Shown here: positions 52,374 through 62,513 of the stretch, piece after piece
How the letters are laid out: the number at the start of each line of letters is the position of its first letter
Numbering within the stretch: the stretch's first letter is position 1
Source: Rubrivivax sp.
GTDB taxonomy: Bacteria; Pseudomonadota; Gammaproteobacteria; Burkholderiales; Burkholderiaceae_C
Length of the DNA: 64,000 nucleotides
Direction of reading: 5' to 3'
NCBI GenBank assembly: GCA_030680415.1
Contig: JAUXVE010000066.1
Location: 30,899 to 94,898 of the forward strand
Notes under the pieces: model-generated
Seen by the model: the letters and a program-made list of their open reading frames with translations, nothing else
What the model was told of the DNA's origin: nothing
Database searches by the model: none
Translations under genes and position numbers: made by a program

Positions 52374-52458
52374 GTGTGCTCCTTCGGATTGCGGTTGAAG
52401 TCAACGGTCCACCCAATCAGGGCCGTCGCGCATGGTGCGGGGCGGACCTGCACTTGCC

Positions 52459-52472
52459 TTGATTTGCTTCAA
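52459..52472. promoter_or_regulatory. FNR/CRP-family box upstream of trpB2
   Basis: TTGATTTGCTTCAA (1 mismatch to TTGAT-N4-ATCAA), centre about 92 bp upstream of the ATG. Confidence 0.62.
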
Positions 52473-52530
52473 GGACATTCGACATCGGCCTGCGCCGAAC
52501 CGACTTGGGTATGGGGTCCGTGCACGGCGC

Positions 52531-53232
52531 TCATCCCGTGTGCAGGAAGTGCCGGCTCGTGCCGTCGAGGACGAGGCAGGTCAGCACGCCGCTGCGGTGG
52601 GCCCCGGTGTCGATGCCGATGCGATTCGGGCGCAGTTGTGGCCGTTCGGAGATGCTGTGCCCATGCACGACGACCGCGCCGTGATCGAGCGTCGACTCGA
52701 GGAACGGCGCGCGGATCCACATCAGGTCGTGCGCGGCCTGCCGTTCGAGTGGCACCCCCGGTCGGACCCCGGCGTGGACAAAGAAGTAGTCGCCGCAATG
52801 GTGGCAATAGTCGGTCGAGCGCAGGAAACTGAGGTGCGCCGACGGCAGCACCGCGTCGAAAGCGTCGCGCAGGGCAGCAACAGTTGCGTTCTCGCGTCGA
52901 CGGCGGCCGGCGACGTCGACGCCGTAGTCGGCCAGCGTGTCGAGACCGTCGTAGTCGAACCAATGGCGGCCGGCATCGAGGTCGCCGTCGAGAAAGCGCA
53001 GCCAGAGGTCCTCATGGTTGCCGCGCAGCGTGATGCGGGTAAAGCCCGGTGGCGGGGCGGCAACCATCGTCTCGACGACGCGCCTGGAGTCGGCGCCCCG
53101 GCTCACGTAGTCGCCCAGATAGACCAGGCGCCGCTGGCGCGCCGGCCGCCGCGCCGCGTCGGCTTCGATCGAGACCAGAAGGGCCTGCAGCAAGTCGAAG
53201 GGGCCATGGATGTCACCGATCGCGTAGATCAC
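52531..53232 (-). CDS. Calcineurin-like metallophosphoesterase (PPP/PrpA-like)
   Basis: GDIHG, GDYVSRG, RGNHE, VHAG, VHGH, GIDTG. Confidence 0.87.
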   Translation of the reverse strand: MIYAIGDIHGPFDLLQALLVSIEADAARRPARQRRLVYLGDYVSRGADSRRVVETMVAAPPPGFTRITLRGNHEDLWLRFLDGDLDAGRHWFDYDGLDTLADYGVDVAGRRRRENATVAALRDAFDAVLPSAHLSFLRSTDYCHHCGDYFFVHAGVRPGVPLERQAAHDLMWIRAPFLESTLDHGAVVVHGHSISERPQLRPNRIGIDTGAHRSGVLTCLVLDGTSRHFLHTG

Positions 53233-53255
53233 GGTCCCGGCCGCCGTGCTCGCGC

Positions 53256-53855
53256 CTATCTCGGCGTTCGTCGCGGCTCCTTCGTGTCGGCGCCGTGGCC
53301 GGTCCAGCGCTGGAACAGGTCGTGCTCGATGCCGACCTGGTCGAGCGCCTTGCCCAGGGTCTGGTGAATGAGGTCCATGATCGTGCGTGGCCGGTGGTAG
53401 AACGCGGGCATCGGCGGCAGCAGCACCGCGCCACAGTCGGCCGCGCGTGTCATCAACTCCAGGTGTCCCCTGTGCAGCGGTGTCTCGCGCACCAGCAGCA
53501 CCAGCTTGCGCCCCTCCTTGAGCTGTACGTCGGCGGCACGCACGACCAGGTTGTAGGTGAACGAATTGGCGATCGCCGACAGCGTCTTCACCGTGCAGGG
53601 CGCGACGATCATGCCGCGTGTGCGGAACGATCCGCTCGCCACCGCGGCGCCGATGTCCTTGTTGCTGTAGACGATGTCGGCCAGCGCACGCACCTCTTCC
53701 AGCGTGTCGTCGGTCTCGATCGTCAGGTTCATGCCGGCCGCCTCGCTGAGGATCAGGTGCGTCGGCTGGCCCAGGCTCTTGAGCACGCGCAGCAGTTCGA
53801 CGCCGTAGATGACGCCGGTGGCGCCGGTGATGGCCACGATCAGGGGCAAGGTCAT
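53256..53855 (-). CDS. ubiX: Flavin prenyltransferase
   Basis: VAITGATG, IASGSF-like VASGSF, APCTVKTL, RAADVQLKEGR, RETP, PPMPAFY. Confidence 0.92.
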   Translation of the reverse strand: MTLPLIVAITGATGVIYGVELLRVLKSLGQPTHLILSEAAGMNLTIETDDTLEEVRALADIVYSNKDIGAAVASGSFRTRGMIVAPCTVKTLSAIANSFTYNLVVRAADVQLKEGRKLVLLVRETPLHRGHLELMTRAADCGAVLLPPMPAFYHRPRTIMDLIHQTLGKALDQVGIEHDLFQRWTGHGADTKEPRRTPR

Positions 53856-53883
53856 GAGTGGATCCTGTGCACGGGCATGGGGT

Positions 53884-54570
53884 TCAGGTGGCGAGCGCGG
53901 GCTGCTGCGCATCGACCGACTCGATGACCGGAATCCCGGCCGCCGCCAGCGCCGCGGCGACCTCGAGCACGTCGGCAGCGTGGAAACGGACGATGATCTT
54001 GTGCTCGACGAGGTCGTTGTCGATCTCCGCGTCGTGGCGGCCCAGCATCGGGTAGATCGCCTGCAGGACGGCGCCGGCGCCCTCGGCCACTTCGGCGATG
54101 CGCCCGATGACGCCGGCTCCGAGCCTGACGGGCCCGGTGGTGATGCCGCTGCAGCGCTGCCAGGCGCCCAGGCAATGCGCCGCGATCTGGAAGATCTCGT
54201 TGGCCGAGATCACGCCGACGACCCGATCGCCCTCGAGCACCGGGAACTGCGCGACGCCGAGTTCCCGACCCTTGCGCAGGCAGTATTCGATGGTGTCGCC
54301 GGCCTGAACCGTGCCCGGGTTGCGCACCATGACGTCGCGAACCCGCAGCCGGGTGACGAAGTAGTTGAACTCGTCGCTGTCCTGCGTGCGCAGCACGAAG
54401 TGGCCCATGCGCAACAGGTTGGCGCGTGTGACGAGGCCGCGAAGCCGACCGTCGTCGACCACCGGCAAGGCATGCAGGTTGTTCTCGCTGAGGATGCGCT
54501 TGGCCTCGGAGACCAGCGTGTCGCTCGCGATCGTCAACGGATCGGTCTGCATCCAGGTGCGCACGATCAT
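53884..54570 (-). CDS. ppsC: Phenylphosphate synthase gamma subunit (CBS pair + ACT-like)
   Basis: MIVRTWMQTDP...SEAKRILSENNLHALPVVDDGRLRG closely resembles remembered Thauera PpsC. Confidence 0.85.
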   Translation of the reverse strand: MIVRTWMQTDPLTIASDTLVSEAKRILSENNLHALPVVDDGRLRGLVTRANLLRMGHFVLRTQDSDEFNYFVTRLRVRDVMVRNPGTVQAGDTIEYCLRKGRELGVAQFPVLEGDRVVGVISANEIFQIAAHCLGAWQRCSGITTGPVRLGAGVIGRIAEVAEGAGAVLQAIYPMLGRHDAEIDNDLVEHKIIVRFHAADVLEVAAALAAAGIPVIESVDAQQPALAT

Positions 54571-54582
54571 CGCCGGCTCCTT

Positions 54583-55824
54583 TCAGCCCAAGGCCCGCGA
54601 CAGGCGATACAGACGCACGAACTCGTCGACGGCGACGCGTGCGAACTCGGGTGTGTACAAGTGAAGGTCGAATTCCTTGATGCGGGCCCGATCGTCGATG
54701 CGCTCCTTCAGGCGCGCGACGAAAGCGGCGTTGGCCTGCGGGTCGTGGATCGGGCGGCCGGCGCGGTCGAGCGACGACCAGCCCTGCAGCGGCACGAGGA
54801 AGCTCCACTCGCCGCGCGCCGCGTTGAGCCGCTCGGCAATGACGTCGGCGGCCTGGCGCAGTTCGTCGGCAGTGGTGCGCACCTGCACCCGAAGTGCGTC
54901 CTGCACGTACTGCACGCGGTCCTTCGTCTTGTCCAGCATATCGGCGCGGCCGCCGTAGGACAGGATGTCCAGCCCGCAGGGCGCCAGCACGGTCGGGATG
55001 CCGGCGGCGGCCGCCGCCTTCAGCCGGTCCGGCCCCGGGTCGCGGTTGCCCTTGAACAGGTGCTCCATGACGCCGCCGATGCAGATGTCGACCACGCCCT
55101 GGAAGGCGCCGTCGCGGATCATCTCCTCCATCGCCTTGTCGCCCTTGCCCTGGGCATGGCAGACGATCGGCGTGAAGCCCGCCTGCTCGAGCATGCCAAT
55201 GGCGGCCTGCACCGCCATCTCGCCGAAGCCGAAGGACGAGATCGCCACGCAGGGCTGGTCGAAGCGGAAGTCGATGCCCAGCGTCATCTCGACCATGCCG
55301 CAGATGGCGCCCACCGCGTTGACGATCTGCGCCTTCAGCAGCGGGTTCATCTTGACGATGTCGAGCACCGTGTGGTGCATCGTGATGTCGCGCGTGCCGA
55401 CGTACTGGTCGATGTAGGCCGGGTGCGCGGCCATCGGCGAGGCCATCAGCTTCGGCAAGCCGAAGGGCAGCGTCTTCATGATCGACGTGGCCACCAGTGT
55501 CGCGGTGCCGCCGCCGATGCCGATGATGCCGTGTACCCGGCCCGCCTGCACCAGCTCGGCGACGATGGCCGCCGCGCCGCGGATCTGGTTGCGCGTGGCG
55601 GTGTCGCGGTCGCTGCGGTACTTCTCGCGCACCACCTCGATCGGCAGGCCGCCGCGCGCCGCCACGTCCTCGGTGCGGATGTCGCCCGGGAACGGCGGTG
55701 GCTCTTCCATGCTGAAGTCGAGCAGGATCGGCTCGTGCCCGCGCCCGGCGATGAGGTCCTTGACGAAGGCGATGTCTTCGCCGCGCGTGTCCAGGTTACA
55801 GACGATGACGATGCCTTTTCTCAT
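54583..55824 (-). CDS. Tm-1-like ATP-binding domain protein (UPF0261)
   Basis: NLDTRGED, GIGGGTAT, LPFGLPKLM, SSFG, HAQGKG, APCGLD, PLQGWSSLD; start at ATG 55824 or GTG 55836. Confidence 0.8.
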   Translation of the reverse strand: MRKGIVIVCNLDTRGEDIAFVKDLIAGRGHEPILLDFSMEEPPPFPGDIRTEDVAARGGLPIEVVREKYRSDRDTATRNQIRGAAAIVAELVQAGRVHGIIGIGGGTATLVATSIMKTLPFGLPKLMASPMAAHPAYIDQYVGTRDITMHHTVLDIVKMNPLLKAQIVNAVGAICGMVEMTLGIDFRFDQPCVAISSFGFGEMAVQAAIGMLEQAGFTPIVCHAQGKGDKAMEEMIRDGAFQGVVDICIGGVMEHLFKGNRDPGPDRLKAAAAAGIPTVLAPCGLDILSYGGRADMLDKTKDRVQYVQDALRVQVRTTADELRQAADVIAERLNAARGEWSFLVPLQGWSSLDRAGRPIHDPQANAAFVARLKERIDDRARIKEFDLHLYTPEFARVAVDEFVRLYRLSRALG

Positions 55825-55846
55825 GCCGACCGCCACCGGGTTCGCG

Positions 55847-57352
55847 TCACTTGGCCTTCTTGGCTTCGGGCCGCGTCAGCCGGTTGATCATGCCGGCCAC
55901 CGGGCTGGCGCCGGCAAAGCCGTACTCGCTCCAGCGATCCGACACCTTCTGCAGCACGGCGCGGTCCATGAAGATCTCGCTCGGCTTGTTCTTCCACTCG
56001 AACGGCGTGCAGGCGTCGAGGATGATGCGGCTGGTGATCTCGCGCGCCTCGATCGGCAGCCCGGGGTCGAGCGGCGTCGAGCGGCCGCGGTCGATGATCT
56101 GCGCCGAGCGCTTGGGGTCGAAGCGCGTGGCCAGCGCCCACCAGATGCGGTCCCAGTCGTCGGCCTCGATGTCGTGGTCGACCGTGATCACGCCCTTGAC
56201 GCCGTAGTGCCCGGTGGTGCTGGCGATGACGGCGTTGCCGACGTGGTTCGAGTGCCCCGGGTACATCTGCTTGACCGAGACCACGACCCAGAAGCGGCCG
56301 CAGGCCTCGGGCGGGATGTAGACGCTCTGGATGCCCGGCACCTTCATCGTCTCGAGGTCGTGCCACAGCGTGGCGGTGCGGTTGAGCGACTGGATCATGT
56401 GGATGTCGTTGATCGGCTTGCCCACCGTCGTCGACCACATCACCGGCTTGTTGCGATGCAGGATGCGCTTGATGCGCAGCACCGGCTTCGGATAGTCCTT
56501 GCCCTTGTTGCCGGAGTAGTAACCCGTGTACTCGCCGAACGGCCCTTCGTCCATCAGCTCGTTGGGGTCGATGAAACCCTCGGCGATGATCTCGGCGTTG
56601 GCCGGCAGCGTCAGGCCGGTGACCTCGGACTTGAACACCGGCACCGGCCGGCCGCGCAGCGAGCCGGCGATGTCGTATTCGTCGACCTGCGCGCTGACCA
56701 GCGTCGAGGCGGCCAGGAACAGCACCGGGTCGCAGCCGACGACAGCCGCCGCGGGCATCAGCTCGCCGCGCTCCTGGTATTTCTTCATGTGCATGTCGCC
56801 ATGCTTGCCCTTGATGATCTGCGAGCCCAGGATGTCCCTGGCGAGCACCTGCGAGCGGTAGGTGCCCAGGTTCGTCCAGCCGGTGTCGGGGTCTTGCGTG
56901 ACCAGGAAGCCGGAGGTGACGAAGAAGCGGCCGCCGTCGTCCGGATAGAACCAAGGCGAGGGGAATTTCTCGATGTCGATGTCGGCGCCGGTGATCTGGT
57001 TCTCCATCACCGGCGGGTTGTCCACATGCACCGGCTTGACCATCTGCTTGGTGGTCAGCTCCATCCACTTCTTCGACAGCTGGCTCATCGACAGCGAGGG
57101 GTCCTGCTCGAGCGCGATCGCCAGCCGCTGCGCGGTGGTGAAGGCGCTGGTGAAGACCGGGATGTCGTAGCCCTTGACGTTCTCGTACAGCAGCGCCGGG
57201 CCCTTCTGTTCCTCGTTGACCTTCGAGACGTGGCAGAGCTCGAACTTCCAGTCGACCTCGGTCTTCACGCGGTGCAGTTGCCCGCTGGCCTCGAGTGCCG
57301 CGATGTAGCTGCGCAGGTCGTCGATGGGCCGGATGTCGTGGCGTGCATTCAT
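55847..57352 (-). CDS. ppcB: UbiD-family prFMN (de)carboxylase, phenylphosphate carboxylase beta-like
   Basis: EVDWKFELCHVSK, NLGTYR, EGPFGEYTGYY, RTATLW, GRFWVVVSVKQMYPGH, GRSTPLDP resemble remembered PpcB; located in a pps operon. Confidence 0.78.
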   Translation of the reverse strand: MNARHDIRPIDDLRSYIAALEASGQLHRVKTEVDWKFELCHVSKVNEEQKGPALLYENVKGYDIPVFTSAFTTAQRLAIALEQDPSLSMSQLSKKWMELTTKQMVKPVHVDNPPVMENQITGADIDIEKFPSPWFYPDDGGRFFVTSGFLVTQDPDTGWTNLGTYRSQVLARDILGSQIIKGKHGDMHMKKYQERGELMPAAAVVGCDPVLFLAASTLVSAQVDEYDIAGSLRGRPVPVFKSEVTGLTLPANAEIIAEGFIDPNELMDEGPFGEYTGYYSGNKGKDYPKPVLRIKRILHRNKPVMWSTTVGKPINDIHMIQSLNRTATLWHDLETMKVPGIQSVYIPPEACGRFWVVVSVKQMYPGHSNHVGNAVIASTTGHYGVKGVITVDHDIEADDWDRIWWALATRFDPKRSAQIIDRGRSTPLDPGLPIEAREITSRIILDACTPFEWKNKPSEIFMDRAVLQKVSDRWSEYGFAGASPVAGMINRLTRPEAKKAK

Positions 57353-57400: not shown

Positions 57401-58537
<1,137 letters not shown>

Positions 58538-58538
58538 C

Positions 58539-60374
58539 TCAGCGCGTGATGGTGACGGCGCCGGTCGAACCGTCGACGCGGATCATCATGCCGGTCCTGA
58601 TGATCTTCGTCGCATGCCCGGTGCCCACCACCGCGGGCATGCCGTATTCGCGGCAGACGATCGCCGCGTGGCTCATCACGCCGCCAACGTCGGTGATGCA
58701 GGCGCCGATCTTGGCGAAGGCCGGTGCCCACGACGGCGAGGTCGTCGGCGCCACCAGGATCTCGCCTTCGAGCAGTTCACCCACTTCGCCGACCGTGCGG
58801 CACACCCTGGCCTTGCCTTCGGCGATGCCGGGGCTGCCGGCAAAGCCCTTCAGTTCGGTGATGGTGTCGGGGTCGGCCACCTCCTGCACCGAAGCCCAGT
58901 CGGCGAGCGACTTGTTGGTCACGCCCCAGAGCACGATGGTGAAAGGCTCTTGAATCACCTCGGGGGCGGTGCCGATGGCTGGCGGCGGGCTCCACTCCTT
59001 GAACTTCGCCATCACGCCCTTGCGCCACTCGATCTCGGCCGGCCAGGTCTGCGTGCCGCGCGGCGTGACACCGGTGGCCCAGGCGGTGACGATGTCCCAC
59101 AAGGCCGACTTGATCTCGTCGCGGCGCAGCAGCCAGATGTCCTCGACATCGGCGATGACGCCGTGCTCCTGCATGATCGCGCCGACCTCGCGCATCTTGT
59201 TCCAGAACACGGAGTGGAACCAGTGTTCGACGTAGAAGAGGTGGTTCTCGACGTACGGGAACACGGTCTTGGCGCAGCCCAGCAGCTCGTCGAACTGCGC
59301 CAGGTCCTCGGGCTTTTCGATCAGCGCGCGGTACTCGGCAGTGATGCGGTCGCGCTCGGCGCGCACCTTCTCGGTCGGGCGGTCGATCGAGGCGCCGGAC
59401 TTCAACTTGCCGATGTAGGTCTGGATGCCCGACAGCGGCACATCCATCTGGTCGTTCCACGAGCGGTCGTGGTGGAACCAGCCGGTGCCGGTGGAGATGT
59501 TGAACCAGGGTTCGCGGGCCAGGCTCAGCGAGCTCAGCCAGTCCATGCCCTTGGGCAGCTTCTTCAGCGCCTCCTCGACCACCGCGAAGCGCGGGCTGAA
59601 GGCCACGACCTCGTCGACGCCGAGTTCGATCGCCCGGCGCGCGAGCTTCTTGAGCTCCTCGTCGGGCTGGTACATGATGACGTCGATGCCCGAGATCATC
59701 TGCGTCACCCGCTGCGCCGGGATGTTGGGGAATAGCTTCTGGGCGAAGTCGAGGAAGAACACGTAAGCGGCGTAGCCGAGGTTCAGGAACTCGAAGTGGT
59801 ACTGCCAGCACTTGATGCCGAGGTTGATCAGGTCGTCGTAGTTCTTCAGCAGGTGGTAGCCCTTGGATTCGCCCAGTGCGTCGGTCACCACCGAGATGTC
59901 CTCCATCTCGGCCAGGCGCGGGATCTGCAGCGCCTCGAGCTCGCGGATGGTGGCCTCCATCTTGACCTTCCACCTGGCTTCGAGCGCGTCCCAGTTCTTG
60001 TAGTAGTGGCCGGCGCGCTCCATGAAGTGCGGCACCCGGGCGCCGATCTCGGCGCCGTCCTTGACCGGCACCGGCGAGATGTAGACGTAGCCGTTGATGA
60101 TGCGGTGGTCGACGCCGCGCACCGGTGGCACCATGAAAATGCGGTTGTTGAACTGCGACAGCGCCAGGAACCAGGCCTCGTCCCAGATGGTGTCGAAGGG
60201 ATAAAGCGGCTCCGGATAGTGCAGCCCGTCGTAGAACCAGAACGTGTCCTTCTCGTACTGCTGGCGCACCGCATCGTCGGTGACGAACTGGTATTGGTAT
60301 GGATACATCCGCTCCCAGCCTTCGGTGCCGGGGATCGTCTTGGCCTTCACGTCGTGCGGAACCGGAAATTTCAT
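58539..60374 (-). CDS. ppsA: Phenylphosphate synthase alpha subunit (phospho-His)
   Basis: MKFPVPHD...TIPGTEGWERMYPY, DGLHYPEP, GGVMSHAAIVCRE; very close to remembered Thauera PpsA, 611 aa. Confidence 0.92.
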   Translation of the reverse strand: MKFPVPHDVKAKTIPGTEGWERMYPYQYQFVTDDAVRQQYEKDTFWFYDGLHYPEPLYPFDTIWDEAWFLALSQFNNRIFMVPPVRGVDHRIINGYVYISPVPVKDGAEIGARVPHFMERAGHYYKNWDALEARWKVKMEATIRELEALQIPRLAEMEDISVVTDALGESKGYHLLKNYDDLINLGIKCWQYHFEFLNLGYAAYVFFLDFAQKLFPNIPAQRVTQMISGIDVIMYQPDEELKKLARRAIELGVDEVVAFSPRFAVVEEALKKLPKGMDWLSSLSLAREPWFNISTGTGWFHHDRSWNDQMDVPLSGIQTYIGKLKSGASIDRPTEKVRAERDRITAEYRALIEKPEDLAQFDELLGCAKTVFPYVENHLFYVEHWFHSVFWNKMREVGAIMQEHGVIADVEDIWLLRRDEIKSALWDIVTAWATGVTPRGTQTWPAEIEWRKGVMAKFKEWSPPPAIGTAPEVIQEPFTIVLWGVTNKSLADWASVQEVADPDTITELKGFAGSPGIAEGKARVCRTVGEVGELLEGEILVAPTTSPSWAPAFAKIGACITDVGGVMSHAAIVCREYGMPAVVGTGHATKIIRTGMMIRVDGSTGAVTITR

Positions 60375-60456
60375 GTCATGTCTCCTGGACTCGTCGGTGG
60401 CTGGCGCCGCAGGGCAGCGCAACGTTGGCGCGACCTGCCGGTCGTTGCGATTCCAT

Positions 60457-60776: not shown

Positions 60777-62512
<1,736 letters not shown>

Positions 62513-62513
<1 letters not shown>

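Follow-up and report, generated by a model that had tools for sequence, protein, structure and literature searches.

A conserved metallophosphoesterase at the downstream end of anaerobic phenol gene clusters, possibly a source of dimethylallyl monophosphate for UbiX

Why should an operon for anaerobic phenol degradation end in a gene for a phosphatase of the kind otherwise met in signalling? The question is raised by a stretch of 64,000 nucleotides from Rubrivivax sp. (assembly GCA_030680415.1, contig JAUXVE010000066.1, positions 30,899 to 94,898 of the forward strand), which is called the window here and whose first letter is position 1 of all coordinates given without a prefix. In the window, a gene encoding a metallophosphoesterase (MPE) follows ubiX in a phenylphosphate synthase and carboxylase (pps/ppc) cluster. 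The pathway of anaerobic phenol degradation is in the textbooks and its gene clusters have been studied for 25 years; this terminal gene is missing from the literature that was searched. The search found no paper that names the gene, and none that joins phenylphosphate with a metallophosphoesterase, or UbiX or its substrate dimethylallyl monophosphate (DMAP) with a phosphatase, in a relevant manner. MPE is genuine and conserved, an accessory component of these clusters that had so far gone undescribed. The result of the analysis is one defined, testable clade with a diagnostic Ser in place of an Asp, tied to the phenol clusters of Betaproteobacteria and, probably through transfer, to those of Myxococcota.

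A conserved gene at the end of pps/ppc clusters

The MPE gene (52531..53232, minus strand) has a GTG start and encodes a PPP/RLPH-like protein of 233 amino acids that is a member of the phenol-cluster clade. The translation contains motif I, GDIHG, with metal ligands (residues 6-10; 53203..53217, minus strand), motif II, GDYVSRG (residues 40-46; 53095..53115, minus strand), motif III, GNHE (residues 71-74; 53011..53022, minus strand), and also VHAG (residues 152-155) and HGH (residues 190-192). In an alignment of 46 sequences (A1), G6, D7, H9 and G10 of the first motif and G71, N72 and H73 of the third are invariant, as are D41, H153 and H192. Motif II carries Ser44, read from the sequence as the codon AGC at 53103..53101, at the position where GDxxDRG has its second Asp. 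The Pfam model PF00149 (Metallophos) matches the protein with 42.9 bits against a cut-off of 21.5. An earlier sequence-only reading had described this open reading frame (ORF) as a calcineurin-like metallophosphoesterase with the motif GDYVSRG, located 23 bp past ubiX and last in its operon. The description is accurate in its motifs and coordinates, since the translation, the Pfam match and the spacing all fit.

The specific NCBIfam models all score far under their cut-offs on MPE. The top match is ApaH (NF001204, 46.3 bits against 176; TIGR00668, 23.7 bits against 222.85), and the scores for PnkP (39 bits against 750), PrpE (33 bits against 340) and PrpA/PrpB (29 bits against 332 and 21 against 326) fall equally short of assignment. 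The PpcD model TIGR02726 gives no match. The only names given to the protein in the sources are "serine/threonine protein phosphatase 1" and "metallophosphoesterase".

Gene context was compared over 80 loci from species-representative genomes and 80 from metagenome contigs, and neighbours were screened by tblastn with the operon proteins of the window and with genes from related clusters. The loci that were found with MPE as the query are biased towards clusters having it. The MPE homologues of at least 54% identity with upstream DNA all lie at the downstream end of pps/ppc clusters, except for those of L098, L100 and L104, which are contigs of the type with Asp at position 44, and a homologue with 50% identity (L091) also lies at the downstream end of such a cluster. 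The gene directly upstream of MPE in the 42 cluster loci is ubiX in 26, a PNPOx-like gene in eight and a PaaK-like or AMP-forming (aryl-CoA) ligase gene in eight, and the PNPOx-like or ligase gene is itself downstream of ubiX. The short ubiX-MPE spacing of the window is found again in 26 related loci. In all cluster loci MPE comes last among the conserved genes, as the sequence-only reading had it for the window, where trpB2 lies on the same strand 157 bp beyond. Neighbourhood conservation, which that reading had named as a check, is strongly positive, with MPE at the end of pps/ppc-ubiX clusters.

The clusters can be sorted by gene order. Type A, found in the window, in Rubrivivax, in some Rhodocyclaceae and in three Myxococcota metagenome-assembled genomes (MAGs), consists of ppsAB, a ppcB-like gene (ppcB'), a UPF0261 gene, a CBS-domain gene, ubiX and MPE. 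Type A', found in Sulfuritalea-like genomes, is type A with Nudix, PNPOx-like and sometimes PaaK-like ligase genes between ubiX and MPE. The classical clusters form type B, with ppsABC, ppcB, ppcD, ppcA, a third ubiD, ubiX, a CTP-dependent riboflavin kinase gene, Nudix and PNPOx-like genes, an optional ligase gene and MPE. Type C is found in Comamonadaceae and Oxalobacteraceae and is composed of ppsAB, ppcB', an AMP-forming ligase gene, a CBS-domain gene, ubiX and MPE, with xylR convergent. MPE always occupies the end of the cluster at which ubiX or the cofactor genes lie, the cofactor genes of classical clusters being the block of ubiX, riboflavin kinase, Nudix and PNPOx-like genes.

One clade marked by serine at position 44

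The residue matching position 44 was aligned over 131 loci with at least 700 bp upstream, with L086 counted as a cluster locus. Ser at this position is associated with a phenol cluster in 37/37 loci, Asp in 1/93 and Asn in 1/1, and two independent locus collections agree on the association of the Ser motif with the cluster. In alignment A1, Ser44 is present in 18 of the 20 clade rows and Asp in all 26 outgroup rows, and His90, Phe92 and Leu121 are further clade-specific residues. A maximum-likelihood tree of 157 sequences places all cluster-linked proteins in one clade (SH-aLRT 99) of 44 rows, 43 of them with cluster context and one without upstream DNA. Because the clade is single, the association of Ser with the cluster is real but represents one evolutionary event, not 37 independent ones. 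The MPE lineage entered pps/ppc-ubiX clusters once, has stayed terminal since, and swapped its second Asp for Ser. The Asn-type member (L091) is located near the base of the clade. A Sterolibacterium MAG (L007:4279-4971) carries the sole cluster-linked MPE with a canonical GDYIDRG, an apparent Ser-to-Asp reversal because the protein is nested deep in the Ser clade.

Among the Asp-type proteins, the nearest relatives (53-54% identity) are encoded some 40 bp 3' of a gene for a PAS-HD_5 (HD-GYP-like) protein of about 720 amino acids in three loci (L100:3381-5567, L110:1457-3589 and L116:7700-9877), and those of L100 and L110 also adjoin MmcB-like genes; this outgroup context rests on four loci (L100, L104, L110 and L116). 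The position of these relatives after PAS-HD_5 genes suggests that the MPE lineage moved from a signalling setting into catabolism. Whichever substrate it acts on, MPE would be a clean case of a signalling-type phosphatase re-tooled for catabolism.

The AlphaFold2 model of MPE (pLDDT 96.4, pTM 0.92) shows a PPP/RLPH-type binuclear metallophosphoesterase. Structurally, it comes closest to Arabidopsis RLPH2 (Rhizobiales-like phosphatase 2, 5vjv; Z 24.1, root-mean-square deviation 2.2 over 216 residues, 27% identity), which is also the best sequence match among solved structures (phmmer E 3e-7). Further matches are the PnkP phosphatase domain (Z 23.3), the putative Ap4A (diadenosine tetraphosphate) hydrolase 2qjc (Z 21.6), lambda phosphatase (Z 21.2), ApaH (Z 20.4), and PP1, PP2A and calcineurin (Z ~17). 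The motif II Asp is kept by RLPH2, lambda phosphatase and PnkP in alignments with MPE, and the intact GDxxDRG of the canonical PPP protein phosphatases (PP1, PP2A, lambda phosphatase, RLPH2) is not found in MPE, which has GDYVSRG. By its sequences the clade is a motif-altered variant of the RLPH/PPP phosphoesterases. Its closest known counterparts are RLPH2 and bacterial PPPs of the RLPH type, which are uncharacterised. MPE and RLPH2 have in common the GDxHG and GNHE motifs and a compact catalytic domain; however, RLPH2 has GDYCDRG and is a phosphotyrosine protein phosphatase, whereas the MPE clade has Ser, is about 70 residues shorter and stands in a catabolic operon, not in a signalling context. 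The compact bacterial PPP fold and its metal-binding motifs are likewise common to MPE and to lambda phosphatase, PrpA, PrpB and PnkP, but the Asp is kept in those enzymes and the PrpA/PrpB and PnkP models fail on MPE as given above.

A neutral residue in place of the second Asp is characteristic of ApaH-like phosphatases (ALPH) (PMC8220851). The window's genome has a true ApaH (G000:C87:37543-38352, also L167:1501-2310; 344 bits against 176) with the motifs GDVQG, GDLVNRG and GNHD, the Asn of which aligns with Ser44 of MPE. MPE is like ApaH and ALPH in its fold and in the neutral residue, and ApaH and ALPH, enzymes of symmetrical Ap4A hydrolysis and of mRNA and Np4 decapping, cleave phosphoanhydrides. 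Unlike ApaH, it fails the ApaH models, keeps GDIHG and GNHE and groups with RLPH-type proteins in the tree, and unlike the ALPHs it retains the motif Arg that they have lost.

Candidate functions

The sequence-only reading had offered MPE as a non-orthologous replacement of PpcD, the delta subunit of the Thauera-type carboxylase. The two proteins are phosphohydrolases of the same kind of cluster, and phenylphosphate is a conceivable substrate for MPE. The difference of fold that it had noted holds: the true PpcD, as encoded in L012:3963-4574 (TIGR02726, 307 bits against 282), is a HAD protein of the KdsC-like type, whereas MPE is a PPP/calcineurin-like sandwich. The replacement itself is disfavoured by the distribution of the genes. 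Classical clusters encode MPE together with PpcD and PpcA (in L012 as judged by NCBIfam, in G145/L086, and in L013, L016, L027, L028 and L093 as judged by tblastn), and PpcD proteins beside it score 307 and 305 bits against the TIGR02726 cut-off of 282. In the genomes G405 and G412, MPE follows a classical PpcB gene on the same strand at a distance of about 8 kb. In three further genomes (G013, G122 and G193), type-A clusters end at ubiX and a member of the MPE clade was not found genome-wide; PpcD was not found in them either, with only KdsC-level matches present. G545 (83% complete) likewise encodes a type-A-like PpcB, and a search for clade members in it was negative. Among 401 genomes sampled from the order, PpcB exceeds its cut-off in five, G013, G122 and G193 among them, and 2/401 carry MPE. 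Overall, MPE is present in 4/8 PpcB-positive genomes, which is the only estimate free of MPE-query bias and comes from genomes that are related to each other. Since MPE and PpcD are both present in classical clusters and both missing from G013, G122 and G193, their distributions are not complementary, and this co-occurrence and joint absence mark MPE as an accessory whose presence is independent of PpcD.

With a probability of roughly one in three (0.35), we favour MPE as an accessory small-molecule phosphoanhydride hydrolase that would make DMAP from dimethylallyl diphosphate (DMAPP) for UbiX, the other role that the sequence-only reading had offered. To our knowledge, DMAP, the second substrate of UbiX, is the one input without an ordinary metabolic source. 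The conversion of DMAPP to DMAP is a phosphoanhydride hydrolysis. In PP1 and lambda phosphatase, the second Asp pairs with the His of GNHE, the proposed general acid that protonates the leaving group. Because the Asp supports this His, its loss should be best tolerated with substrates whose leaving group is good, and the altered motif of MPE would suit such a substrate. DMAPP hydrolysis was considered the most likely activity because the ApaH and ALPH branches without the Asp cleave phosphoanhydrides and because MPE lies at the ubiX or cofactor-block end of the cluster. In the proposed scheme, the riboflavin kinase of the cofactor block would give FMN, MPE would convert DMAPP and water to DMAP and phosphate, and UbiX would use the DMAP to form prenylated FMN (prFMN) for the highly expressed PpcB-type carboxylase. 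In E. coli, DMAP serves UbiX as its substrate and is produced by ThiM or by Nudix enzymes that hydrolyse DMAPP (PMC12359138, citing Wang 2018); the reaction and role of NudJ, NudB, NudF and NudI are those proposed for MPE. These Nudix enzymes differ in having an unrelated fold and chemistry, the activity of MPE is inferred, and a separate Nudix gene is often present in the same clusters. That housekeeping Nudix enzymes can also supply DMAP would account for MPE being helpful yet dispensable.

A trio of genes is located after ubiX in L012:8357-9933, and also in L013, L016, L028, L086 (G145) and L102. It encodes a riboflavin kinase of the archaeal, CTP-dependent type (PF01982), a Nudix protein that is NudC-like and begins with a Zn ribbon at its N terminus, and a split-barrel protein of the PNPOx-like kind. 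Archaeal-type riboflavin kinases are unusual in Betaproteobacteria. The trio looks like a dedicated block for prFMN supply and maturation, and its split-barrel protein recalls PhdC, a flavin-reductase-like prFMN maturase (PMC13040415).

If MPE does make DMAP, it bears on the open source of the UbiX substrate in bacteria with a high prFMN demand and would offer a one-gene tool to boost prFMN for engineered UbiD (de)carboxylases. The more specific proposal that the whole clade is a dedicated DMAPP monophosphohydrolase, and thereby the first PPP enzyme on a prenyl diphosphate and the first operon-encoded, pathway-specific DMAP source, is rather doubtful.

Several points weigh against DMAP supply. 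The putative assignment to DMAPP rests on gene position and one residue, and we know of no prenyl-diphosphate hydrolase in the PPP family. A Nudix gene stands beside MPE in many type A' and type B clusters, and a DMAPP hydrolase activity of this Nudix protein would leave MPE redundant; the best match of the Nudix protein is NudC-like, however, and its substrate may rather be a dinucleotide. All sightings of the clade are in phenol clusters and none with other UbiX/UbiD systems, in which a general helper of prFMN synthesis might also turn up, but the restriction could be due to a single origin. No clade member turned up in four of the eight PpcB-positive genomes. Finally, RLPH2, the nearest solved relative, is an aryl-phosphate (phosphotyrosine) phosphatase, and phenylphosphate resembles the phosphotyrosine side chain.

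This last point leads to an alternative that is unlikely but the best placed of the rivals, namely that MPE hydrolyses phenylphosphate or a related aryl phosphate, either coupled to the single-subunit PpcB-like carboxylase in the manner of PpcD or uncoupled as a relief valve or proofreader, which would free the phosphate from aryl phosphates that cannot be carboxylated. The restriction of the clade to clusters that make phenylphosphate agrees with it, as does the deeper pocket through which RLPH2, a PPP enzyme, takes the aryl phosphate of its preferred substrate phosphotyrosine (PMC12817480). PpcD and PpcA are also missing from the window's genome (96% complete) at the model cut-offs, the best PpcD-like match being one of 113 bits against 282 (TIGR02726) on another contig. 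However, MPE stands beside a true PpcD in classical clusters and was not found in G013, G122 and G193, whose clusters are without PpcD, RLPH2 has the Asp that the MPE clade lost, and an uncoupled phenylphosphate hydrolase in the operon of the synthase would waste ATP. A delta subunit can also be dispensed with, as in D. anilini, whose carboxylase consists of two PpcB-like subunits and works with neither a gamma nor a delta subunit (PMC7500099). Complex prediction for the PpcB-like protein and MPE, each given as an alignment, returned no answer (score 0.00), which counts neither for nor against binding. Were phenylphosphate the substrate, the view of how PpcD-less, single-UbiD carboxylases work would be altered.

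It is improbable that MPE is instead a nucleotide phosphoanhydride hydrolase that clears Ap4A-like by-products of aryl-CoA ligases or Pps, the adenylate-forming enzymes of the cluster, or that splits FAD into FMN and AMP for UbiX. ApaH and ALPH show the same exchange of the Asp for a neutral residue, the fold matches to ApaH and to the putative Ap4A hydrolase are strong, and ApaH is the top NCBIfam match. MPE directly follows an aryl-CoA ligase gene in 8/42 cluster loci, and its constant neighbours include genes for CBS-domain proteins, a type that binds adenosine ligands. Against this, the ApaH models reach only 46 and 24 bits where 176 and 223 are needed, the genome already has a true ApaH, the motif Arg is retained unlike in ALPHs, and the window's cluster is without a CoA ligase.

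The remaining candidate, a regulatory protein phosphatase that tunes the phenol pathway by acting on the phospho-His of PpsA, on a phosphorylated regulator or on the CBS protein, has the PPP family, the protein phosphatases among the nearest solved relatives and the PAS-HD_5 signalling proteins directly before the nearest Asp-type relatives in three loci to recommend it, but it is quite unlikely, as the clade lost the Asp that the pSer, pThr and pTyr phosphatases of the family keep, the clusters contain no kinase, the discharge of phospho-PpsA would be futile, and PpsA, two residues ahead of its catalytic His, carries Met instead of the Thr at which phosphoenolpyruvate synthase is regulated.

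The operon of the window and its variants

The operon runs on the minus strand in the order ppsA, ppsB, PpcB-like ubiD, UPF0261/Tm-1-like gene, two-CBS gene, ubiX and MPE. The first gene, ppsA (58539..60398, minus strand), encodes the phospho-His domain protein of phenylphosphate synthase (NF006152, 1214 bits; PF00391 match), and ppsB (57401..58537, minus strand) encodes its ATP-binding part (PF01326, 393 bits). The PpcB-like UbiD carboxylase (55847..57352, minus strand; TIGR02724, 565.5 bits against 469) is the sole ppc subunit in the genome. The next ORF (54583..55836, minus strand) encodes a UPF0261/Tm-1-like protein with PF06792 and PF23189 matches, and is followed by that of a two-CBS-domain protein in the PpsC position (53884..54570, minus strand; PF00571 matched twice), which is kept before ubiX in types A and C. 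The ubiX gene (53256..53912, minus strand) encodes a flavin prenyltransferase (NF004685, 240.7 bits against 188; PF02441 match); its ORF is drawn from the first ATG, the domain begins at residue 24, and translation may instead start from a later ATG (53855). The stop codon of ubiX (TAG, 53256-53258) is separated from MPE by the 23-bp spacer (53233..53255, minus strand), which is without a terminator-like site. A divergent XylR/MobR-like sigma-54 activator with XylR_N, V4R, Sigma54_activat and HTH_8 domains is encoded at 60777..62513 on the plus strand.

The slot between the PpcB-like and CBS genes, which holds the UPF0261/Tm-1-like gene in type A (54583-55836 in the window), is filled in Comamonadaceae and Oxalobacteraceae by a gene for an AMP-forming ligase of about 580 amino acids (L018:6839-8569 and L024:7064-8833). 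Both cluster types are missing ppcA, ppcC and ppcD. The type-A clusters of the three Myxococcota MAGs (L014, L017 and L019) include MPE and encode proteins with 57-89% identity to those of the window, which suggests cross-phylum transfer of the whole cluster, or mis-binning.

In the MPE-less type-A clusters of G013 (L083:13258-14435) and G122 (L084), the genes after ubiX are an ORF judged DUF2390-like by inspection of its translation and one for a HAD-IA hydrolase that is phosphoglycolate-phosphatase-like (80 bits against a cut-off of 180). The pair in G013 was found again only in G122, the sole other genome of its genus that was examined. A 302-amino-acid ORF directly after ubiX in G013 was rejected as spurious (GC content at third codon positions 0.55).

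Downstream of MPE in the window, the 157-bp spacer before trpB2 (52374-52530) shows no terminator-like hairpin by scan or RNA folding (z -0.32), and there may be read-through from the phenol operon into trpB2. The spacer ends in a GGAG ribosome-binding site. The adjoining of trpB2 and MPE is seen again only in L003, the nearest relative of the window.

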